DNA from: Candidatus Flexicrinis affinis
GTDB taxonomy: Bacteria > Chloroflexota > Anaerolineae > Aggregatilineales > Phototrophicaceae
Direction of reading: 5' to 3'
Length of the DNA: 64,000 bases
Assembly: GCA_016716525.1 (NCBI GenBank)
Contig: JADJWE010000002.1
Location: 579,951 to 643,950 of the forward strand
The position numbers and the translations under genes are program-made. How positions within the stretch are numbered: the first letter of the stretch is position 1; every line of letters starts with the position of its first letter. Positions 4,395-49,985 of the stretch are shown piece after piece. The notes under the pieces were generated by a model. That model had not been told where the DNA came from. It was given only the letters and a program-made list of their open reading frames with translations, and ran no database searches.

Positions 4395-6095
4395 CTACGG
4401 CTGAGTGCCAGACAGCTTTGACGCGTAGTCGGTCGCGTTCTCGGTCGACTGGAAGATCACGGGCTGCGCATCGAACACGGCATCCGGGCCCAGCCGCATC
4501 AACGCGCCGGTTCGCGTGAGTTCGTCGCGCAGCTTTTTCCCGACACCGGCAAGGATCAGCTTGCCGCCCTGATCGCGCAGCATTGAGTCGTAGCGCAGGA
4601 TGACGTTGATCCCGGTGCTGCCGAGCGACTCGGTATCGCGCAAGCGCAGAATCACGAGCGGCTTGACACTGCCTTCCGGATCGGGCAGCAGCGACTCCAG
4701 CTTGCGGAACGCCGCGAAGTACAGCGTGCCGTTGACCGAAAGCACCACGGGCGTATGGTCAGGCAGCTTAGCCGGGCTGGGCTGCTCGCTGAACCGTCCC
4801 CGCTCGTCCTGTACGAGTTGAACGACTTCGATCTGCGTGCTGGATGTCCAGATGTACAACCCGAGCGACAGCAACACGCCGCCGTAGATCGAGTACTCAA
4901 GCGGCAGCACCAGCGCGCCGGCGAAGGTTGCCAGCATCGACACGCGGCCAATCGTGGAGACGGCCCACACCAGGCGAATTGCGCGCAGGTCGATCAAGCT
5001 GAGTGCCGCGACGACGAGGTGACCGGCCAGCGCCGCCAGCGGAATCACCTCAATCACGCCAGAGAACAACAGCATCATCATAAAGATGGTGATGCCGGCG
5101 TAGACGTTCGCCATGCGGCTTTGCGCGCCGCTGCTGATGTTGACGGCCGTGCGCGAGAGCGACCCGCTGGACGGCAGCGCCTGAAACACGCTTCCGACCG
5201 CGTTTGAGACGCTGTGCGCGATGAAGTCCCGGTTGACATCCGCGCGGGGTTCCTTGCGGTCGCGCAGCTTCTCGACAAGCGCAGCGTGCTGCACACAGGC
5301 CAACAGCGCCGTGGCGAACGCCGCGCCGAGCAGCGGCTGAGCGTAACCGAGGTCAGGCAAAACGGGCAGCGGCAGTCCTGACGGAATCGGCGACTGATCG
5401 CTCACGAGCGCAACCGTCGACCAGTCGAAGATCAGCACCAGCGGCGTGACGATCGCGAAGGCGACCAGCGTCGCGATGTTCTTGAGGCGTCGCATGTGGT
5501 GGAACGTGTAGATCATCACTGTCGTGGCCGCGCCGACGACGAGCGTCGCCGGGTCAGTTTCGGCGATCCGCCCGAACAGCTCGATGACGCCGCCCAGCGC
5601 GTTGCTGCCCGAATGCACCTCGATGCCGAAGATGTGATCCAGTTGACCGAAGATGATGAGCACGCCTGCCCCGCTGATAAAGCCGACGATCACGGCATTG
5701 CTGACGAATCGTGTGAGCGCAGAGAAGCGGAACAGACCGAATACGAGTTGAAACGCGGCGACCAGCAGCGTGAACGTGAACAGCGGAACGGGCGGGTCGG
5801 GGTTGTTGAAGGTCGTTAGCGCGCCCGCCACCAACAGCATGAGCACGTTTGTCGGCGCGACGGTGACGAAACGCGAACTGCTCAACAGGCCGCCGATGAT
5901 TGTCGGGAAGATGCTGGCATAGAGACCGTAGACCGGATTGACGCCGCCCAGCAGCGCGAATCCCATCGACTGCGGCGCGCCGGCGATTGCACCGGTCAGT
6001 CCCGCAGTGAAGTCCGCACCAAAACTCGCCCGTGCAAAGCGCAGACGTTCACGAAGCATGTGCAAATAGCCCAGTTGAAAGTGCCGAGACAGCAA
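4395..6095 (-). CDS. SulP-family anion (sulfate) permease with a C-terminal STAS domain
   Basis: 566 aa with multiple TM segments. The N-terminal region is SLC26/SulP-like and the C-terminus is STAS-like. Confidence 0.85.
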   Translation of the reverse strand: MLSRHFQLGYLHMLRERLRFARASFGADFTAGLTGAIAGAPQSMGFALLGGVNPVYGLYASIFPTIIGGLLSSSRFVTVAPTNVLMLLVAGALTTFNNPDPPVPLFTFTLLVAAFQLVFGLFRFSALTRFVSNAVIVGFISGAGVLIIFGQLDHIFGIEVHSGSNALGGVIELFGRIAETDPATLVVGAATTVMIYTFHHMRRLKNIATLVAFAIVTPLVLIFDWSTVALVSDQSPIPSGLPLPVLPDLGYAQPLLGAAFATALLACVQHAALVEKLRDRKEPRADVNRDFIAHSVSNAVGSVFQALPSSGSLSRTAVNISSGAQSRMANVYAGITIFMMMLLFSGVIEVIPLAALAGHLVVAALSLIDLRAIRLVWAVSTIGRVSMLATFAGALVLPLEYSIYGGVLLSLGLYIWTSSTQIEVVQLVQDERGRFSEQPSPAKLPDHTPVVLSVNGTLYFAAFRKLESLLPDPEGSVKPLVILRLRDTESLGSTGINVILRYDSMLRDQGGKLILAGVGKKLRDELTRTGALMRLGPDAVFDAQPVIFQSTENATDYASKLSGTQP

Positions 6096-10946: not shown

Positions 10947-12203
10947 TTATTCACAAGTCTCGTGCATCGTGGGCGTGATTGCAGTGGGGTTGGAGAAGTT
11001 GTCGCTCTCGAAGTCGTAACCGTAGAAGGCGGCTGCGGTGTTGTCACCGTTCTCGTCGAACCCGAAGGTGCCGATGATGCCTTCGAAGTCGGCCGTGCTG
11101 CGGACAGCTTCGAGGACCGACGCGCGATCGACGGTGCCGGTCTCAGACGCGCTACCGAGCGCGTTGAGGACGACCTGCATCGACGCGTAGGCGTACACGC
11201 TGTACGGATCCGGCTCTTCGCCAAACTGCTCGACGTAGTCGGTGTAGAACCGCACGCCCTGCTCGTTGCTGAGCAAGCTCGGCAGCAGGCCGGGGAACGT
11301 GAAGTAAGTGTTGTTCGCCAGAATCTCGGCACCGCCGACCTGTTCGATCAGCGCGGCAGAGAGGATTCCGTCCGGACCCATGAACTTGATGCCTTCATCG
11401 AACAGACCTTCGTCGTACATGGCCTGAACAACGCGCGGGCCGCCGCTGTCAAGCACGAAGCCGCCGTAGATCAGGTCGGCGCCGTCGCGCAGCGCAGCCG
11501 TCAGAGCCGAACGCGGGTCGGAATCGGCCGTCTCCAGCGACGAACGGCCGACAACGTTCAGGCCGATCTCTTCGGCGTGGTTGACGAATTCGTTGGCGAT
11601 ACCGGCGCCGTAGGCCTGCGTATCGTCAAGAACGTAGACGTTCTCAAAGCCGAGGCAGACTGCCCACGAGGCAGCCGCCGGGCCTTGTACGTCGTCGGTC
11701 GCCGCAACGCGGAAGTAGTTGACTTCGCCCGACGGACGATAGATGCCCGGCTCGTCTTCGGCGCAGGTCGGGCAGGAACGGGTCAGACCGGCGTAGCTGT
11801 TGGCGGGGCTGACCTGCACGACGCCAGCCGCGTTGGTGATCGGCATGGACACAGCGGCGGCACCGCTGTTGTACGTCCCCATGTAGACCAAGCATTCCGG
11901 ATCGTTCACGCAGCGCTGGGCGTTCTCCGCCTCGATTTGGCCGTCCCAAGCACCGGAGGTGGGCGACGCGTCGTCCAACGGCACGACTTGGACCGTAAGG
12001 CCGGCCGGCCCCATGCCTTCATTGTCTGCCAGATAGTGCTCGAGCGCCAAGTTGACTGCGTTGAGCATGGATTGACCAATGGCCTGCGTGCCGCCAGTCA
12101 GAGGCCACGACGTGTAGATCTTGACGGTCTGTCCGTCCTGCGCACTGACACCCAGAACCAGCAGGGCCAGTAGGACGAAGACCACGACGCGTTTTGCCAG
12201 CAT
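10947..12203 (-). CDS. Branched-chain amino acid ABC transporter substrate-binding protein (LivK/LivJ-like)
   Basis: Signal peptide begins at the internal Met (MLAKRVVVFVLLALLVLGVSAQ); the track ORF extends to 12248. It has a periplasmic-binding-protein type I composition and is the first gene of the liv-type operon. Confidence 0.8.
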   Translation of the reverse strand: MLAKRVVVFVLLALLVLGVSAQDGQTVKIYTSWPLTGGTQAIGQSMLNAVNLALEHYLADNEGMGPAGLTVQVVPLDDASPTSGAWDGQIEAENAQRCVNDPECLVYMGTYNSGAAAVSMPITNAAGVVQVSPANSYAGLTRSCPTCAEDEPGIYRPSGEVNYFRVAATDDVQGPAAASWAVCLGFENVYVLDDTQAYGAGIANEFVNHAEEIGLNVVGRSSLETADSDPRSALTAALRDGADLIYGGFVLDSGGPRVVQAMYDEGLFDEGIKFMGPDGILSAALIEQVGGAEILANNTYFTFPGLLPSLLSNEQGVRFYTDYVEQFGEEPDPYSVYAYASMQVVLNALGSASETGTVDRASVLEAVRSTADFEGIIGTFGFDENGDNTAAAFYGYDFESDNFSNPTAITPTMHETCE

Positions 12204-12308
12204 TTTTGCACTCTCCTCACACAGTATAATTTGCGAGCCGCGCAACACTGCCTTTTCGGGCGGTGTGCGCGCATTGTAGCGACTCGCCTAATGTACCGGC
12301 AAATTCTC

Positions 12309-19617: not shown

Positions 19618-20528
19618 ATGACACAGCGGGTAATCACGCTGGAAAACGCATCTTGGAAGGTCGGAATTCTGCCCGAGACCGGCGCATCGGTCGCGTTCGG
19701 ACAGTTCTGGAACGGCAGCACATGGATCGACGTCATGCGCCCGACCGATCCGGCCGACTACGGCAACGCGTCCAAGTGTGCCAGCTTCATCATGCTGCCG
19801 TGGTGCAACCGCATCCGCGAAGGTGTCCTCAAGACTGCCGGACAGCGCTATCAACTGCGCACCGCGCCGGAGGACAACACCGCCCGTCATGGCGACGTGC
19901 GCAATCGACCGTTCAAGGTCGTCAAAGAGTCAAATCATGCCGTAACGTGCACGTTCGATAGCCGTGACTTCACCGACATCAACTGGCCGTTCGCGTTCAC
20001 GGCGCAGGTGCGCTATTTGCTGGACGGTCCACGCTTCACGTGGGACCTACAGATTCGCAACGTGGACAAGCGGTCGTTCCCTGCCGGCTTCGGCCATCAT
20101 CCGTATTTCGTCAAGACGAACACGCCGCCCACCCTGCAAATTCCGTGCACGCAGCAGTTCGACCTGCTGGACTCATTGGCGCACAGCGCGCCTCGCACGG
20201 TGGACCCCGCGCTCAACTTCGTCAAGCCCCGGCCGATGGGCGACCGCGTCTATGACGACGTGCTGACCGGTCGCATCCCGATGGTCGCGTACGCATGAGC
20301 TGGGACGAGCTGGACGTGATTCTTACGCTCGATGCCGAACCCGTGTTTGCGCATTGGCTGTTGTATGCGCCCGAGGGCCAGCCGTTCATCGCGCTTGAGC
20401 CGATGACCAACGTCAACGACGGTTTCAACCTCGTCGACGCCGGAATCGAAGGCTCGGGCGTGTTTATCCTGTCACCCGGCGAAATTCGCAGCGGCGCGTT
20501 CTCGATGACCGTGATGCTGGCCGACTAA
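19618..20528 (+). pseudogene. Aldose 1-epimerase (galactose mutarotase-like) family protein, split into two frames at about 20290-20297 (as sequenced)
   Basis: The N-terminal 226 aa (frame 1) and C-terminal 77 aa (frame 0, containing the conserved 'FIALEPMTN' region) together make one ~300-aa epimerase. The junction is an ATGA overlap. It is either a sequencing indel or a genuine frameshift. Confidence 0.65.
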
Positions 20529-20531
20529 CAC

Positions 20532-21641
20532 CTAAGCAGACGCAAATCGGACGGAATAGATTGGTGGCAGATTGCCGCCCAAGCACTGCCACGATTCACC
20601 GCGGTCGCTGGATAAGTACAGGTTGCCGGTGGTCGTACCGAAGGCCAGCGTGTCGCCGCTCAAGTCAAGCGCGTGGCGGAACACGACGTCAAACGCCGCG
20701 CCTTGCGGCAGGCCGTTTCGAAGGGCCGCCCACGTATTTCCACCGTCTTCGGTGCGGCACACGCACAACGCGCGATCAACCGCGATGCGGAACTCGGAGT
20801 CGATGGCCGGGACGACCCACGCCGTATTTGCATCATGCGGATCAACCGCAATCGGAAAGCCGAAATACGCAGGCGCTTCAGGCTGCGAGATGTTCTTCCA
20901 TGTCTTCCCGCTGTCGATACTGCGGAACACGCCGCAGTGATTTTGTTGCCACAGCACGTCCGGGTTGGACGGCGACATCAACATGAAGTGCGGGTCGTGC
21001 CCGAACTCGGATGTCGGGTCGGGCAGAAAGTCGGCATACAGGCCGCTGTTGCGCGGATGCCACGTCGCGCCGTCGTCGTGCGTTTCATACACGCCGCCGC
21101 AGCTAATGCCGACGACGATGTGCGCGCTGTCGCGCGGATCGACGCAGATCGAGCACAGGCCCGGATGATCGCGCCCACCGCCGAACCACCATTCGCTGCG
21201 CTCCGACCGATCCCACAAGGACTGCACCAGTTCAAACGACTCGCCTCCGTCGTCACTGCGGAACAAGCCGCCGGGTTCGGTGCCGATGTACAGACGTTCG
21301 GGCTGATCAGCCCCGCCGGGCTGGATGATCCAGATATAGCTGAGCTTAGCCGGCGTCTCGCGCCGATCGCCCCCGGGAAAACCGACACTCTGTACGGCAC
21401 CGTCGGGAAACACCGGCACGGGAACTTCTTGCCACATTGCACCCACGTCGTCTGACCGGTGCAGTTTCTGCCCCCAATGGCCATGGTCGAGGCCCGCCCA
21501 CAGCGTGCCGGTACGCGGATCTCGCATTGCGTAGCTCACGGGCTGAGCACGGAAGCTCTCGCTCTTGTAGCGCCACGCGCCGTTGTGCCGTTCGTACTGC
21601 AGCAGTCCCTTGCGCGTGCCGAGTATCAACAGGTCGCCCAT
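20532..21641 (-). CDS. BNR/Asp-box repeat beta-propeller protein
   Basis: Six S/T-x-D-x-G-x-T/S-W/F boxes (SDDVGAMW, SDDGGESF, HDDGATW, SIDSGKTW, TEDGGNTW, SSDRGESW). There is no signal peptide and no N-terminal RIP motif, so it is not a canonical sialidase. Confidence 0.65.
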   Translation of the reverse strand: MGDLLILGTRKGLLQYERHNGAWRYKSESFRAQPVSYAMRDPRTGTLWAGLDHGHWGQKLHRSDDVGAMWQEVPVPVFPDGAVQSVGFPGGDRRETPAKLSYIWIIQPGGADQPERLYIGTEPGGLFRSDDGGESFELVQSLWDRSERSEWWFGGGRDHPGLCSICVDPRDSAHIVVGISCGGVYETHDDGATWHPRNSGLYADFLPDPTSEFGHDPHFMLMSPSNPDVLWQQNHCGVFRSIDSGKTWKNISQPEAPAYFGFPIAVDPHDANTAWVVPAIDSEFRIAVDRALCVCRTEDGGNTWAALRNGLPQGAAFDVVFRHALDLSGDTLAFGTTTGNLYLSSDRGESWQCLGGNLPPIYSVRFASA

Positions 21642-21643
21642 AA

Positions 21644-21940
21644 CTATCCCCCCGAAAGTGCCTGCATGAAAAATACGACTTGATCCTCTTTGACGCGGTC
21701 GGCCAACGTCGTGCGATCCAGCACGAACTCGTCGCCGATGAAGACGTTGACGTGCTTGCGCAAGGCACCGCGTTCGTCGACAAAATATGACGCGATTCCC
21801 GGATAGCGCGCGTCGAGCGCCTGCACGACGTCCGCCACGGTATCGCCTTGAACGGTGATCCCTTGTTCGAGCGTTGGGAAGAACTTCTGCAGATGTGACG
21901 TGAATCGGGCGCGTGGCATTGACTGTTTCCCGTCAGTCAT
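21644..21940 (-). CDS. MoaD/ThiS/CysO-like ubiquitin-fold sulfur-carrier protein ending in Gly-Gly
   Basis: About 90-98 aa. The pattern (...LRKHVNVFIGDEFV...DQVVFFMQALSGG*) matches the MoaD/CysO beta-grasp family, with a C-terminal GG. Its stop lies 2 nt before the start of the BNR gene. Confidence 0.6.
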   Translation of the reverse strand: MTDGKQSMPRARFTSHLQKFFPTLEQGITVQGDTVADVVQALDARYPGIASYFVDERGALRKHVNVFIGDEFVLDRTTLADRVKEDQVVFFMQALSGG

Positions 21941-21988
21941 CTGGTTGCAGTGTAGAACAAAAGTGCGAATTCTGTCAACCAGCGGCGA

Positions 21989-22618
21989 TCAGTCGAGGCG
22001 AACCAGTCCGCGCTGAACCGCGATACGCACCGCCTCGGTCCGGTTCCCGGCGCTGAGCTTGCCCAAGATGGCGCTGATGTGGAACTTGACGGTGCGTTCG
22101 GTGATGACCAGCGCGGCCGCGATTTCTTTGTTGAGATGCCCCTTGGCCAACAAGCGCAGCACGTCCATTTCGCGTTCGGTCAGGCTTTCGGCCGGCGGCG
22201 CGCTGAGCTGACGCAGCAGCTTGGACGCCACGACAGGTTGCAGCAGCGAGCCTCCGCCAGCGACGACCCGCACGGCCTCGAACAATTCGCCGCGCGGCAC
22301 CCCCTTGAGGAGGTAGCCCTTCGCACCCGCTTCGACCGCCTTGACGATACGTTCGTCAGTGTCGAAGGCGGTGAACACGATCACGCGCACGTCCGGCGCG
22401 CGCTGGCGCAGTTGAGTCAGCGCGTGGAGCCCGTCCACGCCGGGCATCTCGAGGTCGAGCAGGATGACGTCAGGCCGCAGCGCGCAGGCTTGCTCGACCG
22501 CCTGCTGCCCGTCCGCCGCCTCGCCCACAACGGCGAAATCGGGCTGCGTGCCGAGCACCATCGTCAGGCCGTCGCGCACCACGGGATGATCGTCTACGAC
22601 AAGAATGCGAATGGTCAT
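21989..22618 (-). CDS. NarL/FixJ-family response regulator (receiver + LuxR-type HTH)
   Basis: MTIRILVVDDHPVVRDGL...D54-like context. The C-terminus has 'LTEREMDVLRLLAKGHLNKEIAAALVITERTVKFHISAILGKL'. Its ATG overlaps the kinase stop (ATGA). Confidence 0.85.
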   Translation of the reverse strand: MTIRILVVDDHPVVRDGLTMVLGTQPDFAVVGEAADGQQAVEQACALRPDVILLDLEMPGVDGLHALTQLRQRAPDVRVIVFTAFDTDERIVKAVEAGAKGYLLKGVPRGELFEAVRVVAGGGSLLQPVVASKLLRQLSAPPAESLTEREMDVLRLLAKGHLNKEIAAALVITERTVKFHISAILGKLSAGNRTEAVRIAVQRGLVRLD

Positions 22619-23770
22619 ACATCCCCCACCGGCACTTCGACCACGACACGCGTCCCCCGCCCGGGCGCAGACGTCAGCCGAAAACGCCCGCCAAGCAGAC
22701 CGGCGCGCTCGCGCATACCGGTCAGCCCATAACGATCCGACGGCGCTAGTTCGGGATCGAACCCGACACCATCGTCGGCGATCGACAGCTTGACCTTGCC
22801 GCGGCTCAGCGCAAGCGACAGTGATGGTCGACGCCTGCGCGTGGCGGGCGATGTTGGACAGCGCCTCTTGCATGATGCGGATGAAGCCGTTCTCGACGTG
22901 CGGCGGCAGGTCGATCGCGGTGAGCTGCAGTTCGACATCAAAGTTAAAGCGCCCGCCGTAATCACGCGCCAGCGTCGAAATCACGTCGGAGAGCGTTCGC
23001 CCGTCAAGCAGCGAAGCGCGCAGGTCCATGACCGACCGGCGGGTCTCGTCCAGCCCGTGCCGCACGCGGCCTAACGCCTGCTGCACGATCGAACGGACGC
23101 GCTCGCCGCCGTCGACCGACTCAAGGACGGCATCAGCGGTCTCGAGCTGGAGCGCGATCGACGTCAAGTCCTGCGCCAGCGTGTCATGGAATTCACGGGC
23201 GATCCGCACGCGCTCCTCGGCGGCGCCGGTTTCGGCACTGCGGCGGAACAGCCTCGCCCGTTCGATCGCCACGCCGAGCATGTCGGCGATGGTCGCCAGC
23301 AGGCGCAGTTCGTCGGCATTGAGCGCGCGCTCGTCGGCGCTGGTGACGTTGATCAGGCCGAGCTTCTTGCCGTGCGCGTCGATCGGCACGGTTGCGTGAT
23401 AGCGCAAGCCGTCGGTGCCGGTCATCGTGTCCTTCAGGCGCGAGCACTTGATCACGCTGATGTTCGACGCGCCGGACAGTTCGCCGGACTCGTAGTCGTC
23501 GATGCACGTACACCACGTGGTGCCCTTCATGCGGTGCGGATGGTCGGCCAGCGCCGGCGGCAGGTTCTGATGCACGGCGAGGCGCGCGTTTGCGCCGTCA
23601 TCGTCGGTCAGCCACACCCACCCGGTCTGCAGGTCCATCAACCGCACGACAAGGCTGAGCGTGGTACGCAAGGCGCGCTGCACGTCCAGCTCGGCGTTGA
23701 GCGCCTGCGCGATTTGATTCAATACGGAGAGTTCGGCGTTGCGCCGGGCGAGGTCAGCGGGCGTATTCAT
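22615..23770 (-). pseudogene. GAF-domain sensor histidine kinase (HisKA_3 H-box + HATPase_c), reading frame broken at about 22835 (as sequenced)
   Basis: The N-terminal GAF domain and H-box (REFHDTLAQDL) are in one frame. The HATPase_c domain ('KVKLSIADDGVGFDPE...GTRVVVEVPV') is in another. The switch is at 'atcactgtcgcttgcgctgagc'. Without it the kinase is full length and ATGA-coupled to the regulator. Confidence 0.75.
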
Positions 23771-23798
23771 GCCCTAAGTATACGCGATCTGAATCGCG

Positions 23799-24438
23799 CT
23801 ACCCGATCAGCACGACATGTACCTCGACGGGGCCGTGCGCACCCAGTATGAGTTCCTGTGCAATGTCGGCCGTGCGGCTTCCGCCGGTGATAAACACGAC
23901 GTTGGCGCTCTCGCGGAAGTGCGTCAATCCCGAGGCAGAGACCTGTTCGAACCACGCCTCGACATCCGGCAATATCTGATCGGCGCGAACCACCGCGATA
24001 TGCACCGGCGGCAGCAGTGATGCAAAGCGTGGTTTTCCCGGCCCGCTCGATACGACGAGGCTTCCCGTTCCGGCAAGTGCTGCCTCGACACCAGTCAGCC
24101 CGACGCGGGCCGACGGATCGCGCACGTCGGCGGGCGTAATCCCGCGCGCGTTGAGCGCCTGGCCAACCCTCCAGCGAAATCTGATCCGGATCCCGCGATG
24201 ACCTGTTTGTCATCCCCGATCACTCGAGCACCCGCCCAAGCGCCGCCTTGTCGTCAGCGCACGGCCACAGCGTCACGCCGACGCGTGCTGCCGCCGCCGA
24301 AAACGCGTCGCGGAGCGCATCCGGCGATGTGTCGGCCATCGGCACGACCCGCACCGGATCGGGGGTGGCAGGGATGTTCAGCGCCGGATTTGTTACCGCG
24401 CGCAGGCGTTTCAGGATGGATTCTCTGCTCGACATCAT
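23799..24438 (-). pseudogene. lutC: Lactate-utilisation protein C (LutC/YkgG family), two frame changes between 24125 and 24220 (as sequenced)
   Basis: The N-terminal 72 aa ('SRESILKRLRA...LGRVLE') and the C-terminal 108 aa ('...LVVSSGPGKPRF...VVRADQI...VVLIG') are LutC-like but lie in different frames. A third frame carries 'VIGDDKQVIAGSGSDF' in between. The breaks lie in gggg/ggg runs. Confidence 0.6.
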
Positions 24439-24596: not shown

Positions 24597-25991
24597 TCAC
24601 TTCCCTCTTTCCGCCCAAAGTTGGCGGAAGGTCTTGGGCGCGAACGTGGGAAGGTCACGATATTTGGCCCACGCCCCGATCGGCCCCGGATGCCAGCGAC
24701 CCATGATCTTCTGGCCGACTCGCGCGGCCCATGCCGTAAGCCGGTAACTCCACGCTGTTCGCTGCGTGATCGACCACGCCCAGAGGCCGAATCCGTAGAG
24801 CTTGCTGCCGTGGCCGCGCACGGTCATGTCGTGGCGCAGGTCGAGCAGCATGCGCGGCAGGTCGATATCCACCGGACAGACCTGCTTGCACGCACCGCAC
24901 AGGCTGGATGCATACGGCAGCGGTTCGGCGTTCTCAAGCCCGACGTACAGCGGCGTCAGCACCGCCCCGATCGGCCCACCATACACCCATCCGTAGGCGC
25001 CGCCGCCTGTGGAACGATAGACAGGGCATGCGTTCTGGCACGATCCACAGCGGACGCAGCTTAACACCTCGGCGTATTTGGTCGCGTACACCTTGCTGCG
25101 GCCATTGTCGACGAGGACGACGTACACTGCTTCCGGCCCGTCGGGCTCGTCGGTCCGGCGCGGGCCGTTGATCATCGAGGTGTAGACTGCCATGTGTTGA
25201 CCGGTACCGGCACGCGGCAGAACCTGCGTAAGCAGCGCGTAGTCCTCGACGGTCTCGACCATCTTCTCGATACCGACCAGTGCGACATGCACCCGCGGCG
25301 CCGACGTACACAGGCGCCCGTTGCCCTCGTTGGTAACGAGCGTAACTGTGCCGGTTTCTGCAATGATGAAGTTACCGCCGCTGATGCCCATGTCGGCGTC
25401 GAGGTAGATCGGGCGCAGGCGTTGGCGGGCAAAAGCGACCATTTCGCCGGAGTTGTCGGTAAACGGCATGCCCAGCTTCTCGACCATCAGGTCGCGGATG
25501 CTCTCTTTGCTCTTGTGGATGATCGGCGCAACGATGTGGCTCGGGTGTTCGCCGCCGATCTGCACGATGTACTCGCCAAGATCGGTCTCGACCACGTCGA
25601 GGCCCGCGCCTTCCAACGCGCCGTTGAGCGCGATCTCCTCGCTCAGCATCGACTTGGACTTGACGATCCGCTTGACCTGATGCCGCGCCGCGATCTCCTG
25701 CACGTGGCGGCGGGCCTCAGCGGCATCCTCGGCCCAAAGCACGGTGATTCCGTTCTCTTTCATGCGCGCTTCGGCTTCTTCGAGCAGGTCCGGCAGCGAC
25801 TTGAGCGCGCGGCGTTTAGCGGCTGCAGCTTGCATGCGCAGCTTCTGGCCGTGCTCGTACCCGAACTGTGTGAACGCCGCCTGCCGGTTGTTGTAGGCAT
25901 TGCGCGTGCCGCGCCGGACGGCGGTCTGCTGGTCGGTGTTGCGGACGGCGATCGACGCCAGATCGACGAAGTTGTTGGACTCGATCTTCAT
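24597..25991 (-). CDS. lutB: Lactate-utilisation protein B (iron-sulfur, LUD domain)
   Basis: 464 aa with two CxxCxxC ferredoxin-type clusters (CVRCGSCQNACP, CGACKQVCP). It sits between lutA and lutC. Confidence 0.85.
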   Translation of the reverse strand: MKIESNNFVDLASIAVRNTDQQTAVRRGTRNAYNNRQAAFTQFGYEHGQKLRMQAAAAKRRALKSLPDLLEEAEARMKENGITVLWAEDAAEARRHVQEIAARHQVKRIVKSKSMLSEEIALNGALEGAGLDVVETDLGEYIVQIGGEHPSHIVAPIIHKSKESIRDLMVEKLGMPFTDNSGEMVAFARQRLRPIYLDADMGISGGNFIIAETGTVTLVTNEGNGRLCTSAPRVHVALVGIEKMVETVEDYALLTQVLPRAGTGQHMAVYTSMINGPRRTDEPDGPEAVYVVLVDNGRSKVYATKYAEVLSCVRCGSCQNACPVYRSTGGGAYGWVYGGPIGAVLTPLYVGLENAEPLPYASSLCGACKQVCPVDIDLPRMLLDLRHDMTVRGHGSKLYGFGLWAWSITQRTAWSYRLTAWAARVGQKIMGRWHPGPIGAWAKYRDLPTFAPKTFRQLWAERGK

Positions 25992-26755
25992 TTCGGCGCC
26001 TCCTGACCTTCAAGCGACTCGGCCAGCAGGTCGGCCAGGTGGACGCATCGCACCGCCGATCCGCTGCGCGCCAGCCCGCCGTTGATCTGCGTCATACAGC
26101 TCGCGTCGCCGGTCACAACTACGTCCGCCTCGGAGCCGGTGATGCTCTTGACCTTGTCTTGCAGCATCGCACCGCTGACGTCGGCCATCTTAACCGCGAA
26201 CAGCCCGCCGAACCCACAGCAGTTGTCGCAGTCCGGCACCTCCGAAAGCTCGGCATTCTCGACCTCACCGATCAGCGCGCGCGCCTGACCGCCCAATTTG
26301 AGCACACGCAGACCGTGACAACTATCGTGCAGACCGACTTTGCGCGGCGCGTTCAGCCGTCCGCCGAGGTCGGTGATCCCCAGCCCGTCGACCAAGTACT
26401 CGCTGAATTCCCACGTGATCGACGCGGCACGCTCGGCGCGCGGCCCCCACAATGTGTCTCCAGCGAACAGCGACGGAAACTCGTGCCGCACCATCGCCGC
26501 GCACGAGCCGGACGGCGTGACAATGACCTCGGCCCCGTCGAACGCGCGCAAGAACTGCTTGGCGACGCGCGCCGCTTCGCGCCGGTTGCCGCTGTTGAAC
26601 GCCGGTTGGCCGCAGCACGTCTGCGCCATCGGGAACACGACGTTGACGCCGAGGCGCTCGAGAATCGTCACGACCGACATGCCCGTCTGGGGATACATCA
26701 TGTCCACGATACAGGTCACGAACAGACTGACGGTCTTTCCCTTTGGGGGACTCAC
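25988..26755 (-). CDS. lutA: Lactate-utilisation protein A (Fe-S oxidoreductase with CCG domains)
   Basis: A GTG start at 26755 gives 'VSPPKGKTVSLFVTCIVDMMYP...' (compare LutA 'MKVALFVTCLVD'). Two Cys-rich CCG-type motifs are present. The track ORF begins further upstream and overlaps nothing else. Confidence 0.8.
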   Translation of the reverse strand: MSPPKGKTVSLFVTCIVDMMYPQTGMSVVTILERLGVNVVFPMAQTCCGQPAFNSGNRREAARVAKQFLRAFDGAEVIVTPSGSCAAMVRHEFPSLFAGDTLWGPRAERAASITWEFSEYLVDGLGITDLGGRLNAPRKVGLHDSCHGLRVLKLGGQARALIGEVENAELSEVPDCDNCCGFGGLFAVKMADVSGAMLQDKVKSITGSEADVVVTGDASCMTQINGGLARSGSAVRCVHLADLLAESLEGQEAPK

Positions 26756-26997
26756 GGTTGGGTTCAGCCACCGCCCTCTCCTTCGATTGCATCCGTCGCC
26801 GGTCGCCCATTCGGGCGGGCGTCTGGTCCGATGATAGCCAGCCGTGACCGACGGCGCAATCACGCGGCACACCAATGGCGCCGAACGTGCCAAGACGTGT
26901 AGATTTTGGTAGACTCCGCCTGTTCACCGAGCGCGGCACGCCGCGGCCCAACCTTGCGCCTTGCGCTCGATCGCTCGCTTGACTGAAAGAACGGTGC

Positions 26998-39436: not shown

Positions 39437-40696
39437 TCACTCAACTTCCGCGATCCGGCGTAGGAGGAACGCGCGTTCGGCGGCGTTGGTGCACAGGTCG
39501 AGCGCGCGCAGGTAGGCGGCGCGGGCTTCCGGCATCCACCCCAACCGGCGCAGCAGGTCGGCGCGGGCGGCGTGGAACAGGTGATAGCCGTCGAGCGCCC
39601 CGTCGTTTCCCAACGCGTCGATCCGGTCGAGACCGGCCTCCAACCCGTCGCTCATGGCGACGGCAACGGCGTGATTTAGCGCGACCACTGGCGTCGGGGC
39701 CAAGCGGTGGAGCGCGCCGTACAGCAGTGCGATCTGCGCCCAGTCCGTGCTGGCCGAGTCCGGCGACTGTGCGTGCAGCGCCGCGATGGCGGCCTGAATC
39801 TGGTACGGGCCGGCACGCTTGAGCGTAATCGCGTGGTCGAGGATGGCGACGCCGCGGCCGATCTGCGCGTGATCCCACTGCGACCGGTTCTGATCCTCGA
39901 GCAGCACGAGCTGTCCGTCGACCGATTGGCGCGCCCCGCGCCGCGCGTCGTGCAGCAGCATCAACGCCCATAGGCCGAGCGCCTCGGGGTCTTCGCGCAG
40001 GCCGCGCTCGTGCGCCAGCAGGTCGTTGAGTACGGCGGCCAGGCGGATCGCCTCGGTCGTCAGGTCGGGCCGCACGATCGACTCGCCCTCAGGCGCGCTG
40101 TACCCCGCGTTGAAGATCAGGTACAGCACCGACAGCACCGCATCGAGGCGGTCGGGGATGTCGGACGGCGACGGTACAGCGTATGGGATGCCCTCGTCCT
40201 TGATGCGCCGCTTGGCGCGCACCAATCGCTGCTGCAGAGTCGTCACCGGCACGAGGAACGCGGCGGCGATCTCCGACGCGCTCAAACCGCCGAGCGTGTG
40301 CAGCGTCAGCGCGACCTGCGCCTCTTTGCTCAACGCCGGGTGACAGCATGTGAACATCAGCTTGAGCCGCTCGTCCGGGATGTCCTCGGTGAGCATGTCC
40401 GGGTCCTCCGATGCGCCGCGCATCGCCTCCAGCGCGTGCAGGGTCGCCTTCTTGCGCTCGAAGTTCTGCTCGCGGCGTACGCGGTCGATGGCGCGATTGC
40501 GTGCCGTCGCCGTGATCCACGCGGCCGGATTGCGCGGAATGCCGCCCTCCGGCCAGTGTTCGAGCGCCGAGACGACCGCGTCCTGCAACACATCTTCAGC
40601 CAGCGCAAAGTCCCCTAGCGCGGCGATCAAGGCGGCGAGGACGCGCCCGTGCTCGTCGTGCAGCACCTTACGAATGGTGTCGTGAGTCGTCCGCAT
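39437..40696 (-). CDS. ECF-type sigma-70 family RNA polymerase sigma factor with a long C-terminal extension
   Basis: Region 2 ('AAWITATARNRAIDRVRRE') and region 4 ('GLSASEIAAAFLVPVTTLQQRLVRAKRRI'), followed by a ~200-aa extension. It lies downstream of a YciI gene, a common pairing. Confidence 0.75.
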   Translation of the reverse strand: MRTTHDTIRKVLHDEHGRVLAALIAALGDFALAEDVLQDAVVSALEHWPEGGIPRNPAAWITATARNRAIDRVRREQNFERKKATLHALEAMRGASEDPDMLTEDIPDERLKLMFTCCHPALSKEAQVALTLHTLGGLSASEIAAAFLVPVTTLQQRLVRAKRRIKDEGIPYAVPSPSDIPDRLDAVLSVLYLIFNAGYSAPEGESIVRPDLTTEAIRLAAVLNDLLAHERGLREDPEALGLWALMLLHDARRGARQSVDGQLVLLEDQNRSQWDHAQIGRGVAILDHAITLKRAGPYQIQAAIAALHAQSPDSASTDWAQIALLYGALHRLAPTPVVALNHAVAVAMSDGLEAGLDRIDALGNDGALDGYHLFHAARADLLRRLGWMPEARAAYLRALDLCTNAAERAFLLRRIAEVE

Positions 40697-46560: not shown

Positions 46561-48333
46561 ATGACTGACCTGTACGGTATCGTTTACATCTTCACCCTTG
46601 CCGGGGTGCTCTTCAGCGCCGGGCTGGCGTATTTTGGTTGGCGCCAACGCCACGACGCGCCGGTGATGTACACCTATGCCGTGCTGTCGGCGGGTGCCGC
46701 GCTGGCCAGCCTGATGTACTGCATCGTCTGGACGACGCCATCGCCCGAGCTCGCATATATCGCCGCGCGGATCCGCTTCACGAGCCACGCGTTCATCGCC
46801 GTGCTGTTCCTCATGATCGTGCTGCAGATCGAGGGCGTGTCGGTCAGCAAACACCGCTGGTGGTTTGGCGTGCTTGTGGTCGTGCCGATCATCGCAATGA
46901 CCGCCTTGTGGACGAACGACAGCCACCTTTTGTTTTTCCGGTCGTGGGAACGACTGCCGGTCGGCTCATTGATGATCGAAATCATTGAGCATGGCCCGGC
47001 TTGGCACCTGCACACCGGCTACAGCTACCTGATGATCCTGTTGGTGCTCATCCTCTGCGTACGCGGGCTGCTGCGCAAGGGTCAAACGCGTACCACCGAA
47101 TACATGCTGATGCTGGTCACGATGCTGACTCTAGTCGTGTTCAACATCCCCGGCGGCGTGCTGCAGGGCGATCAGCGCGTCCCGATTCTGGTGCCGGTCA
47201 GCTTCGTCGTCGCCGATGGGATCGTCGGCTATGCGCTCTATCGGCACATTGTGTCCAGCCTCGTGCCGATGGCGCTGGACGCGGCGTTCAACAGCATGGA
47301 AGACCCGATGCTGGTGATCAACCAGGACGAACGGGTTACCGCCGCCAATCCGGCGGCACATCGCCTCGCGGGCGTGGAGCGCGGCAAGCTGATTGGCGCC
47401 AAGCTGTGCGAAGTCCCGGGTAATGTGTTCGCTCAACTTGTGCAGCGCAGCGAATCGACGTTCGAAGTCGAAATCCCACGGGCCGGGCATCCCGCGACCT
47501 ATGACGTGCGCATCTCGCCCATCGAGGTTTCCGGCAGGCCACGCGGTACGCTGATGGTCCTACGCGATATCACCCAGCGCGCGGTCGCCAACAAGCGCAG
47601 CATGGAACTGCGACTGGAGCAGGAAAAGGTCCGAATGCTGGAGCGCTTCATCGGCGACACCAGCCACGATCTGCGCACGCCGCTAACGATCATGGACACC
47701 GCGCTCTATATCGCAGAACGTACCAGCGACCCGGTCAAGCGCAGCCAGAAGCTCGCCGAGGTCAGCGTGCAAATCCACCGCGTCAGCCGAATCATCGAGT
47801 CGCTGCAGTTCATGACGCGACTCGACTCGCTGCAGACGATGCGCATATCCAGCATCTCGCTGCAGAGCGCAGTCCAACCGCTCCCTGACGAGCTTGACGA
47901 ATTGATTCAGGTGCGCGGACACACACTGATCGTGGACTGTGATGACGCGTACATCAAAGCCGATCTCGAGCTGCTGCGCAGCGCGGTCCACCGGCTGATC
48001 GAGAACGCCGCGCAGTACACGCCCAACGGCGGGACGATTCGGGTAGAAGCGGGAGTCGTCGGCGAATCGGCCGTCATTGCCGTATCCGACAATGGGACCG
48101 GCATCTCCGCAGACAAAATGCCGCACATCTTCGACCGGTTCACAAAGGCGTCGCCGGCACGTACGTCGACGGGCGCTGGTCTCGGCCTCGCCATCGTCCG
48201 TAAGATCGCCGAACTGCACTGCGGATTGGTCGACGTGTCGAGCGAAATTGGCAAAGGCAGCACGTTCCTGCTGTTGCTGCCTGCACGGCTGTCAACGACA
48301 ACCTTGACCGGTAGCGCACTGCTCAATGCCTGA
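46561..48333 (+). CDS. Membrane sensor histidine kinase with an N-terminal 7TM sensor domain (paralogue 2, tandem duplicate)
   Basis: Same architecture and start ('MTDLYGIVYIFTLAG...') as the preceding gene. The 5' leader is also partly conserved. Confidence 0.8.
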   Translation: MTDLYGIVYIFTLAGVLFSAGLAYFGWRQRHDAPVMYTYAVLSAGAALASLMYCIVWTTPSPELAYIAARIRFTSHAFIAVLFLMIVLQIEGVSVSKHRWWFGVLVVVPIIAMTALWTNDSHLLFFRSWERLPVGSLMIEIIEHGPAWHLHTGYSYLMILLVLILCVRGLLRKGQTRTTEYMLMLVTMLTLVVFNIPGGVLQGDQRVPILVPVSFVVADGIVGYALYRHIVSSLVPMALDAAFNSMEDPMLVINQDERVTAANPAAHRLAGVERGKLIGAKLCEVPGNVFAQLVQRSESTFEVEIPRAGHPATYDVRISPIEVSGRPRGTLMVLRDITQRAVANKRSMELRLEQEKVRMLERFIGDTSHDLRTPLTIMDTALYIAERTSDPVKRSQKLAEVSVQIHRVSRIIESLQFMTRLDSLQTMRISSISLQSAVQPLPDELDELIQVRGHTLIVDCDDAYIKADLELLRSAVHRLIENAAQYTPNGGTIRVEAGVVGESAVIAVSDNGTGISADKMPHIFDRFTKASPARTSTGAGLGLAIVRKIAELHCGLVDVSSEIGKGSTFLLLLPARLSTTTLTGSALLNA

Positions 48334-49985
48334 GAGTTCGCCCGCTCTACTCGCTCGACTGTGGCCAGCTCGCACGTCCCTGCGGTCGCGTTTGGCGGCG
48401 CTCGCCGGCATCGGCACCGTGCTTGTCGGCGCGCTAGTGGCCGTGATCACCGGGCAGGTCGCCCGTGCGCAGCTGACCGCCACCGTTGGCACCGCGCTGG
48501 TCTCGACCGCGCAGCAAATCGCCGACCTGCTCGACCGTGAAATGTACGAGCGCTGGCGCGATGTCGAATTCACGGCGGGGCTTCGGCGTATGAACGATCC
48601 GAAGTCGTCAGTAGAGGATCGTCGGGATCTGCTAAACGAGCTCAAGGGTACGTATCGCTACTACTCGTGGATCGGGTTCACAGACACGACTGGGACGATC
48701 ATCGCCGGCTCGGATGGACTTCTGGAGGGCGAGTCGGTCGCGGCGCGTCCGTGGTTCATCGGCGGTCTGACAGGTATGTTCGTGGGCGACGTACGCGATG
48801 CAGTCCTGTTGGCGCGCGTTCTCGAAGTCGATCCGAACACGCCACTGCGGTTTGTCGACTTCGCCGTGCCGGTCAAAGCGCCGGATGGCACGCTGTTGGG
48901 CGTACTGGGCGCGCACTTGAGCTGGGAATGGGCGCGTGACCTGACGTCGTCGTTCCGGGTAGACAACGGCAGTGACAGCGTGCTGCGCGATCTCGATGTG
49001 ATGATCGTCAATCGGGACGGCCGCTTGCTGATGAGTTTGGATGACGTGGGCGCGGGTGCCGTAGAGACCCTGCCGGTCGTGGATCCCGAACTATATGCGC
49101 CGCGACTCGCCAACGACAATCCGACCTATTGGCTGTCTGAGTGGCCGGATGGAGTCCGCTATGCGGTCGCCGCGGTCAGCGACACCGGATATGAGGCGTA
49201 TCCTGGGCTTGGCTGGACGGTCGTAGTGCGACAGACCGAATCGATTGCGCTGGCGCCAGCCTCGCTCATTCAGGCGCCCATTTTGCTTGTCGGGCTCGCC
49301 GCGGGCGTCGTCGTCGCAGCGCTGGTGTGGGTCGCGACAGGCCGACTAATGCGGTCGCTCTTACAAGTCGTACAGGCTGCGGAGCTCGCCGCTTCCGGCG
49401 TAAACCTGACCGATCTGCCGGTACACTCGCGGCTCGCTGAAGTGAGCCAGCTCAGCAGCGCCCTGACGCACATGATGCATGAGCTTGAGGGTCGCAAGCA
49501 TGCAAGCAGCCACGACTTCCTGACCGGTCTCGCCAATCGTGCCGCGTTCGAAAGTGCGCTTCAGGAAACGCTCACCCGCGGCGTTCAGGTACAGATCGCC
49601 GTGGCAATCGTTGACCTAGACTCCTTCAAACCTGTCAACGACAAGTTCGGCCATGCGGCCGGCGACGCCGTGCTGCGTGTCCTCGCGCGCCGCTTTGCCG
49701 ACGCCGTCCGCGGGCACGGCCTGCTCGCCCGGCTAGGGTGGCGACGAGTTCGCCGTGATGCTCGCGCCAATCGAGTCACAAGAGGCTGCTCTCGGCACGA
49801 TTCAAACCCTGATTGACGCCGCGGGCGACGAGATCGAGGAGCTTTCGGTCGTCGTAGGGGCAAGCGCTGGAGTGAGCTACAGCCCCGACCACGGAATCAC
49901 TGTGGCAGAGCTGCTGGCAGCAGCGGATCGCGCGTTGTATGCCGCCAAACGTGCGGGGCGCGGGCGCGCGCGCGTGGCCGATTAA
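48326..49985 (+). pseudogene. Membrane diguanylate cyclase: periplasmic Cache-like sensor, HAMP and GGDEF; frame broken inside the GGDEF motif (as sequenced)
   Basis: 'ARPWF' Cache signature and a HAMP segment. The GGDEF motif reads 'LLARLG' then switches frame ('GDEFAVMLAPIE' lies in the 49755..49985 frame). The cause is one extra g in 'ctaGGGtggcg'. Its ATG overlaps the stop of the second kinase gene. Confidence 0.7.

Follow-up and report, generated by a model that had tools for sequence, protein, structure and literature searches.

Sulfur carriers of the ThiS/MoaD type are the bacterial roots of ubiquitin, and to our knowledge each of those described so far is tied either to a defined sulfur-insertion enzyme (ThiG, MoaE, CysM, MetY, BexX or TtuA) or to protein tagging. 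CysO is paired with CysM in Mycobacterium tuberculosis and with BexX in Amycolatopsis orientalis, where BexX's carrier relies on an E1 enzyme encoded elsewhere, and MoaD is paired with MoaE. The present study concerns a gene pair in a 64,000-nucleotide stretch of DNA (the window) from Candidatus Flexicrinis affinis of the Chloroflexota (assembly GCA_016716525.1, contig JADJWE010000002.1, positions 579,951 to 643,950), in which a carrier of this type is encoded directly upstream of an Asp-box (BNR) beta-propeller. We know of no earlier instance of the propeller fold as the partner of a carrier. The carrier type is recognizable; the partnership and its function are undescribed, and they are widespread. 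Our search of the literature found no publication joining a sulfur carrier, a thiocarboxylate or MoaD with a BNR protein, an Asp-box, a sialidase or a propeller, and the comparative-genomic surveys of prokaryotic ubiquitin-like beta-grasp proteins published in 2006 and 2007 do not mention a BNR or propeller partner.

A Gly-Gly carrier encoded beside a beta-propeller

The carrier gene occupies 21644..21940 on the minus strand, where the open reading frame (ORF) counted from the first ATG, at 21940, comprises 98 amino acids (aa). The true start is probably the second ATG, at 21919 (M8), because the resulting product of 91 aa has the length of almost all orthologues (90–91 aa) and of P0121, a 91-aa protein from a Chloroflexi metagenome-assembled genome that is named “MoaD/ThiS family protein” at NCBI and is 100% identical to the window carrier. 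The small protein is a genuine ThiS/MoaD-type beta-grasp protein with a free Gly-Gly end. It passes the superfamily threshold of Pfam ThiS (PF02597; 29.7 bits, cut-off 22.5, E = 9.3e-7), its C-terminus reads ...FMQALSGG and is followed by a TAG stop codon at 21646-21644, and its AlphaFold model is a beta-grasp with a pLDDT of 92.9. The final residues of the model have low pLDDT, and such a low-confidence tail looks like the flexible tails of known carriers. The closest Protein Data Bank (PDB) entries by sequence are CysO of M. tuberculosis (3DWG; 3e-6) and 4N6E, the CysO partner of BexX, and a Foldseek search with the model returned CysO first (TM 0.84-0.85), then SAMP1, a Thermus MoaD-related protein, Urm1 and MoaD. 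Among sulfur carriers, CysO is thus the closest relative both by sequence and by fold. At the level of NCBIfam, the best match is SAMP1, which scores under its cut-off (35.9 against 60), and the MoaD model (moaD_arch) likewise falls short (26.2 against 49.5).

The sequence QALSGG is invariant across all carrier alignments, and a stop codon directly follows the Gly-Gly in 71 of 75 genome loci and 69 of 80 metagenome loci (described below). A carrier profile searched against 1.84 billion representatives retrieved 441 clusters at E ≤ 1e-10, and among the best 150 of these, which were inspected, the carrier domain is almost always stand-alone or C-terminal, with no real carrier-propeller fusion. 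Two fusion proteins considered as Rosetta stones were rejected: P0196 is a chimera produced by a deletion, and in P0200 the carrier follows a VOC/PhnB-like N-terminal part. A tail that is invariant, free, and either C-terminal or borne on a stand-alone protein is the pattern expected where the carboxylate itself is used chemically, and the C-terminal chemistry of the carrier is therefore under selection.

The propeller gene, on the same strand at 20532..21641, encodes 369 aa. Its product scores above the Pfam cut-offs for Sortilin-Vps10 (44.9; cut-off 33) and BNR (33.3; cut-off 27) and contains six Asp-boxes (S/T-x-D-x-G-x-x-W/F), which start at residues 63, 129, 187, 241, 297 and 344. The AlphaFold model (pLDDT 95, pTM 0.93) is matched by PDB entry 3B7F, with a profile E value of 1.7e-80 and a Foldseek TM of 0.88. 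This structural-genomics entry, described in the one paper found to discuss it as a seven-bladed Asp-box propeller that is “functionally uncharacterized” and founds a family of its own, has an unusual closure and an open central tunnel of 9 × 11 Å (PMC2716378). Because the model matches a seven-bladed structure, these comparisons indicate that the window propeller has seven blades, not six. The propeller is cytoplasmic: it has no signal peptide, the first strand of the model begins at residue 3, and in a Tat-export reporter assay the N-terminus of PA1356, its orthologue in Pseudomonas aeruginosa, was negative (PMC6085387). The family is large and unusually conserved, with 6629 homologues at E ≤ 1e-5 and the top 120 at ≥61% identity.

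Propellers of this family carry public names such as “exo-alpha-sialidase,” “glycosyl hydrolase” and “PSII assembly factor-like,” none of which withstands inspection. Sialidases of family GH33 have six blades, an (F/Y)RIP motif and an Arg triad and are usually exported; the window protein scores 18.6 against a cut-off of 31.4 for Pfam BNR_2, lacks the RIP motif and a signal peptide, and is seven-bladed in its model. Xyloglucanases of family GH74 are built from two seven-bladed propellers in tandem, and their active site lies in the cleft that separates the two. The propeller here is single (369 aa), and GH74 chains of ~700-790 aa align with it over one propeller at 13-17% identity. The photosystem II assembly factor Ycf48/HCF136 was rejected on its NCBIfam model, PRK13684, for which the score is 21.4 against a cut-off of 326.

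The two genes are tightly joined (21639..21652, minus strand). The Gly-Gly codons GGG GGA (21652-21647) are followed by the TAG stop (21646-21644), a 2-nt spacer (21643-21642) and the propeller ATG (21641-21639), and the two glycine codons form a purine-rich, Shine-Dalgarno-like run at the expected ribosome-binding site of the propeller gene. The spacing of carrier and propeller is -8 to +6 nt in about one third of orthologous loci. The sequence-only reading that first drew attention to this locus had placed and described both genes correctly, leaving only the strand unstated. Its ~90-aa ubiquitin-fold protein ending ALSGG is confirmed by the ORF, the Pfam ThiS match and the AlphaFold and Foldseek results, the box count and length it gave for the propeller hold, and the carrier stop does lie 2 nt before the propeller ATG, as can be read directly from the sequence. 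The profiling with hidden Markov models that it proposed yielded matches above threshold for ThiS, BNR and Sortilin-Vps10 and a failing score for Ycf48.

Conservation of the gene pair

A one-genome-per-species scan returned 572 relatives of the propeller, for which 80 loci were fetched from Chloroflexota, Bacteroidota, Planctomycetota, Verrucomicrobiota, Chlorobiota/Kapaibacteria, Armatimonadota and Acidobacteriota. Of these propeller-anchored loci, 75 of 80 have a carrier homologue directly upstream and in the same orientation. Anchoring the search on the carrier gave 80 metagenome loci, and the propeller is adjacent in 72 of them: directly downstream in 48, downstream past an insert of 0.2-0.9 kb in 4, and directly upstream, in reversed order, in 20. 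The remaining 8 contigs are too short to judge or may carry an insert. The reversed-order clade comprises seven loci (L137, L146, L147, L163, L165, L169 and L170) and 13 shorter metagenome loci, and its propellers are ~47-57% identical to the window's in full-length matches. The pair is also present in Pseudomonadota, including P. aeruginosa, Ralstonia solanacearum and Cupriavidus metallidurans, where it is annotated “MoaD/ThiS family protein” and “exo-alpha-sialidase,” and propeller homologues are present in Burkholderia. The P. aeruginosa pair is PA1355/PA1356 by gene order, the identity of PA1356 being confirmed by sequence (PMC6085387). In all, the pair spans at least 7 phyla and hundreds of bacteria.

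The two proteins have also been inherited together, in that the pairwise-identity matrices of carrier and propeller correlate strongly (Mantel r = 0.87, a value that 0 of 999 permutations reached). All-versus-all clustering of the ORFs from the 80 loci, repeated in the reversed-order clade, revealed no third conserved gene within 10 kb; what it did show was lineage-specific synteny within Chloroflexota, involving a 791-aa BNR protein, a dihydroxy-acid dehydratase and an ADP-ribosylglycohydrolase. Carrier and propeller form a module that is conserved and self-contained. Because adjacency has been kept in two gene orders across phyla, the data provide strong evidence for a functional partnership of carrier and propeller, and the gene arrangements suggest that the two probably also interact physically. 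The sequence-only reading had named loss of this neighborhood in related genomes as the outcome that would tell against it, and the adjacency seen in both sets of loci settles that point decisively in its favor.

The same observations bear on whether there is any link at all, that is, whether a sialidase- or xyloglucanase-like glycoside hydrolase simply stands beside a MoaD paralogue by chance. The public annotations “exo-alpha-sialidase” and “glycosyl hydrolase” speak for this explanation, but the propeller fails the sialidase, GH74 and Ycf48 tests and is single and cytoplasmic, and adjacency in two orders across so many phyla, together with the Mantel correlation, is not an artefact of a few close genomes. 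On the conservation data coincidence is excluded, and we regard this explanation as hardly credible.

Which enzymes might activate and use the carrier was examined through the neighboring genes. A Pfam sweep of the ~45 window ORFs detected no ThiF/MoeB, MoaE, PALP (CysM) or JAB domain, tblastn with MoeB, MoaE, MoaD, MoaA and MoaC of Escherichia coli gave no match in the window, and PALP and JAB genes are missing from the annotated contexts examined as well. The absence from the window of MoaE, CysM, a JAMM peptidase and MoeB/MoeZ, as claimed from the letters alone, is therefore borne out by both searches. By itself this absence is weak evidence, because such carriers are often activated by an E1 encoded elsewhere and because a MoeZ-type E1 (ThiF plus rhodanese, 374-386 aa) does adjoin the pair in three related loci. 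One such gene lies upstream on the same strand as the pair (L034, 8478-9638, plus strand), in what appears to be an E1-carrier-propeller three-gene operon; the others are convergent and downstream (L077, 11095-12219, and L074, about 11496-12218, both minus strand). All three loci are from Bacteroidota and represent two different arrangements, and a rough Poisson estimate for at least two independent E1 adjacencies gives P about 0.015.

These E1 genes, together with genes related to the molybdenum cofactor (Moco) near the pair in other Bacteroidota, raise the question of whether the carrier is an ordinary or spare MoaD and the propeller an accessory of molybdenum- or tungsten-cofactor metabolism. 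A plasmid of Chondrinema litorale (L083, 2488-5572) carries genes for MoaE, XdhC, a cysteine desulfurase (next to sufU) and SufU upstream of the pair, and MoaE (L129, 1-390) or MoaA (L079, 14315-15325, and L044) is encoded within a few kb of it in further loci. However, MoaE occurs only in L083 and L129 among the related loci and is absent from the window and from more than 170 others, the carrier scores below the NCBIfam MoaD cut-off, tblastn with E. coli MoaD retrieves none of these carrier genes, and the carriers form a subfamily with an invariant signature of its own and a constant link to the propeller. P. aeruginosa and its relatives, moreover, presumably have canonical moaD and moaE located elsewhere. 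A role as MoaD is thus quite improbable. The proposal that this is not a standard molybdopterin or cysteine pathway stands, since MoaE and CysM are missing from this locus and from nearly all related ones and the carrier scores under both the MoaD and SAMP1 cut-offs of NCBIfam.

Other neighbors recur less regularly. Genes of the VOC family (glyoxalase, FosB-type, bleomycin-resistance or PhnB-like) repeatedly stand between or beside the carrier and propeller genes (L005, 8730-9561; L110, 6115-7034; L111, 689-1138; L115, 538-1362; L030, 7448-9209; L081, 4578-4991 and 7668-8066), P. aeruginosa being among the bacteria concerned, a VOC domain is fused N-terminally to the carrier once (P0200), and inserts that by eye resemble DinB (L110) and SnoaL (L115) were also seen. 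A jackhmmer scan placed 10 of 12 VOC matches within 1.5 kb of the pair, but the enrichment is biased because the seeds were picked from nearby ORFs, and the VOC and DinB-like neighbors give only a hint of thiol or electrophile chemistry. A link to MBL-fold hydrolases, encoded upstream of the pair in Ralstonia (L082) and once in L183, was rejected when jackhmmer found no consistent association; the L183-type protein we take, from its sequence motifs, to be an RNase Z. An anti-phage defence system was likewise rejected, the PADLOC models giving no match for either protein at E ≤ 0.01.

How carrier and propeller may work together

Conserved positions of the propeller suggest where a carrier tail could be received. 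The motifs GTRKG (8-12), DHGHWGxK (52-59), GGGRD (154-158), GHDPH (214-218) and WQQNHCG (231-237) are conserved, as are R285 and RH (322-323), and the polar residues T9, K11, H55, K59, D216, H218, Q233, H235, R285, T297, R322 and H323 are invariant in all carrier-linked clades. The C-D loops of a beta-propeller lie on the face opposite its B-C and D-A loops. The strand order of the AlphaFold model places the invariant His, Lys, Arg and Asp residues in the B-C and D-A loops; Asp-boxes occupy the C-D loops (PMC2716378). From these positions we infer a cluster of conserved residues that surrounds the tunnel on the side away from the Asp-boxes. By our own estimate, the 9 × 11 Å tunnel of 3B7F is wide enough for a Gly-Gly tail.

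The explanation we favor, tentatively and at somewhat less than even odds, is that the carrier, once activated in trans, passes the thiocarboxylate at its C-terminus to a pocket of conserved His, Lys and Arg residues on the propeller, which would then be a new kind of carrier partner. A trans-activated carrier with the propeller as a sulfur-accepting or sulfur-transferring enzyme is the most economical reading of the data. Specifically, the 91-aa beta-grasp protein would act as a CysO/MoaD-type carrier, the QALSGG tail of which would be adenylated and turned into a thiocarboxylate by a MoeZ/MoeB-type E1, encoded elsewhere in the genome or, in a few Bacteroidota, next to the pair. The carrier would then dock onto the cytoplasmic seven-bladed propeller, as MoaD docks on MoaE or CysO on CysM, and its tail would enter a pocket around the central tunnel, on the propeller's loop-rich “top” face, that is predicted to be lined by the invariant residues K11, H55, K59, D216, H218, Q233, H235, R285, R322 and H323. 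There the sulfur may be handed to an acceptor, either a small molecule or possibly a metal site.

Relatives of the propeller that lack a carrier help to separate the positions that follow the carrier from those that do not. K59, D216, P217 and H323 are invariant in carrier-linked propellers, and in carrier-less paralogues from Streptomyces and Fuscovulum they are replaced by S/G, C, V and D/Q, respectively, with K11, H218, Q233, H235, R285 and R322 retained. A carrier-less paralogue from the archaeon Haladaptatus retains D216 and H323 but is uninformative, because it is only 26% identical. The solved structure, 3B7F, groups by similarity with the carrier-less paralogues of Arthrobacter, Streptomyces, Rhodobacter and Fuscovulum, being 38-40% identical to such paralogues as against 35% to carrier-linked Proteobacterial propellers, and has Thr at position 59 and Gln at position 323. 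One carrier-less paralogue, on a plasmid of Rhodobacter sp. CZR27 (L186, 2583-6110), is adjacent to the ergothioneine biosynthesis genes egtB-egtD in divergent orientation and has ilvD downstream, a single case that may be coincidence.

Because the carrier-less paralogues retain most of the core residues, the propeller would have an enzymatic or binding function of its own, and this counts in favor of a different explanation, in which the carrier is a tightly but non-covalently bound subunit or chaperone that regulates or stabilizes the propeller, its tail plugging the tunnel with no adenylation or sulfur chemistry. Sortilin, Ycf48 and DAIP are peptide- or protein-binding propellers, and the propeller's Foldseek neighbors include sortilin, Ycf48 with a D1 peptide and DAIP with a thermolysin fragment. 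The co-inheritance of the two proteins and the lack of E1, JAMM and desulfurase genes as conserved neighbors would fit such a complex too. A plug, however, would allow more variation than is seen, since ~90% of carriers end exactly at ...SGG-stop, the hallmark of C-terminal activation; MoeZ-type E1 genes adjoin the pair in two independent arrangements; and the nearest relatives of the carrier by sequence and fold are working sulfur carriers. On balance we consider a purely non-covalent role unlikely.

The sequence-only reading had proposed a small-protein modifier or sulfur-transfer system acting on the propeller. A modifier would mean ubiquitin-like conjugation in the manner of SAMP, TtuB or Urm1, in which the Gly-Gly end would be ligated to lysines and the propeller would be either its chief target (for example at K11 or K59) or a substrate adaptor. 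Several features are compatible with such conjugation: SAMP1 is the best NCBIfam match, albeit under its cut-off, SAMP1 and Urm1 are both among the fold neighbors, K59 is invariant in carrier-linked propellers only, and some carriers bear short tails past the Gly-Gly, as modifier precursors do. The genetic context argues otherwise, with no E2, JAMM/deubiquitinase or proteasome-type genes linked to the pair in the window or in the contexts examined, and the PADLOC search was without a match. Thiocarboxylate-using enzymes such as MoaE, ThiG and BexX typically have an invariant Lys close to the carrier tail too, and the conserved residues of the pocket suit an enzyme or a docking partner no less than a modification target. 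Moreover, the very high conservation across phyla suits a metabolic enzyme better than a regulatory tag. We therefore judge conjugation to be improbable.

Several points also weigh against sulfur delivery to the propeller, the explanation that we prefer. We know of no beta-propeller among thiocarboxylate-using enzymes, and we cannot name the acceptor substrate. Genes for an E1, a rhodanese, a cysteine desulfurase and a JAMM peptidase are all absent from the window, and an E1 adjoins the pair in only 3 of ~180 loci. About one in ten carriers has residues beyond the Gly-Gly (GGT, GGVK, GGLR, GGKGR, GGMMRK or longer; L009, L019, L033, L042, P0127, P0149 and ~11 of L103-L182) that would require trimming, and a peptidase gene is never linked. 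C236 is not universal, being Asn in P. aeruginosa. Finally, 5 of the 80 fetched loci encode close propeller orthologues (L011, L016, L070, L014 and L073; 54-62% identical) without a carrier gene in the fetched DNA. By eye, the upstream ORF in L011, L016 and L070 resembles glutamine-dependent NAD+ synthetase, and the carrier may lie elsewhere in genomes with such orphan propellers.

Taken one step further, sulfur delivery could mean that the propeller is the first beta-propeller enzyme to use a protein thiocarboxylate, with a His-rich (H55/H218/H235/H323), possibly metal-bearing pocket that yields an undescribed thio-metabolite or low-molecular-weight thiol. We put this forward as a doubtful conjecture. 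If true, the pathway would be shared by hundreds of bacteria that live in soil, in water or with hosts, P. aeruginosa (PA1355/PA1356), Ralstonia, Burkholderia and Cupriavidus among them. The recurrent VOC and DinB-like genes in or beside the pair would hint that this chemistry serves thiol-dependent detoxification. Even in well-studied pathogens both genes are “hypothetical” or misannotated as sialidase, and mention of PA1355/PA1356 in the literature found is confined to one transcriptome list and a Tat-signal screen in which PA1356 was a false candidate. Both P. aeruginosa and Ralstonia lend themselves to direct tests of the system. An answer for the pair would open a new branch of sulfur-carrier biochemistry or, alternatively, reveal a new ubiquitin-like interaction in bacteria; it would also put right an annotation error that is widespread and give the 3B7F fold the function it has lacked since 2007.

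Genomic surroundings and comparison with known systems

Within the window, the pair looks like a two-gene operon, because a promoter-like site stands upstream of it and a convergent gene, for aldose-1-epimerase, downstream of the propeller. The promoter-like site, TTGACA-18 nt-TACACT (21949..21978, minus strand), falls within the 48 nt that separate the stop codon of the response regulator from the carrier gene. It matches by consensus alone and is the sole sigma-70-like match in 20300-24400 (10/12; shuffles mean 0.6); its position suggests that the pair could be transcribed independently. Directly upstream of the pair are NarL-type two-component genes (21989..23770, minus strand), as had been noted from the sequence; that position is right, but its relevance is not sustained, since these genes adjoin the pair in no other lineage examined, and the two-component system was set aside as a regulator or partner. 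Its histidine kinase is split. The GAF and HisKA_3 frame reads into the response-regulator frame to give a 593-aa ORF, the HATPase_c domain (22615..22965, minus strand) is in another frame, and the frameshift lies near 22790-22800; the kinase is either a pseudogene or the product of an assembly indel.

Other genes in the window are also broken. The aldose-1-epimerase gene (19618-20528, plus strand) is divided into ORFs of 226 and 77 aa that overlap at 20295-20298, the last lactate-utilization gene (LUD domain; 23799-24438, minus strand) is in two pieces, and a truncated GGDEF domain (profile positions 2-80 of 161; 48326-49816, plus strand) and a HisKA-only fragment (50234-50875, minus strand) are found farther away. 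Taken together, the breaks look like the product of a frameshift-prone (long-read?) assembly and not of biology. The carrier and propeller ORFs are intact. The window further encodes a SulP/STAS sulfate permease ~15 kb from the pair (4395-6095, minus strand), a sigma-70-type factor with DUF6596 (39437-40696, minus strand) and a lutABC-like three-gene cluster (24597-26893, minus strand) consisting of CCG, LUD plus 4Fe-4S/LutB_C, and LUD, the last gene being the split one; none of these is conserved near the pair elsewhere.

Among described systems, the CysO carriers are the most similar. They share with the window protein a length of ~90 aa, the beta-grasp, a free Gly-Gly and the closest sequence and fold, and the carrier of BexX resembles it further in its apparent reliance on an E1 encoded elsewhere. 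The partners, in contrast, are entirely different: CysM is an enzyme dependent on pyridoxal phosphate and BexX a ThiG-like TIM barrel, whereas the partner here is a seven-bladed Asp-box propeller. The tail is AVAGG in the CysO systems and QALSGG here, and no Mec+/JAMM peptidase is linked to the window pair. MoaD–MoaE offers the parallel of a two-gene unit of carrier and partner that is often translationally coupled, and activation by a MoeB/MoeZ-type enzyme is plausible here too. Insertion of the tail into a partner pocket near an invariant Lys, as in MoaD–MoaE, is the model we propose for the window pair, even though the propeller is unrelated to MoaE and the carrier falls under the MoaD-family cut-off.

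From the side of the propeller, the closest structure is 3B7F (Reut_B4987/YP_299179.1 of Cupriavidus pinatubonensis JMP134), which has the same seven-bladed Asp-box fold and the GHDPH and QQNHCG motifs but is only 35% identical and is without K59 (Thr) and H323 (Gln) of the carrier-linked propellers. Sortilin Vps10 and Ycf48/HCF136 hold C-terminal segments of proteins or peptides in the central tunnel or close to it. As Asp-box propellers, they provide a precedent for gripping a tail; in contrast to the window protein, sortilin is ten-bladed and either extracellular or lumenal, and Ycf48 serves photosystem II assembly, its model scoring far below threshold here. The dual-function modifiers SAMP1, Thermus TtuB and Urm1 likewise end in Gly-Gly on a beta-grasp and are fold neighbors of the carrier. 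They differ from the system in the window in that the carrier here is below the SAMP1 cut-off, no E1, JAMM or TtuA/NcsA-type tRNA thiolase is linked to it, and its partner is a propeller.

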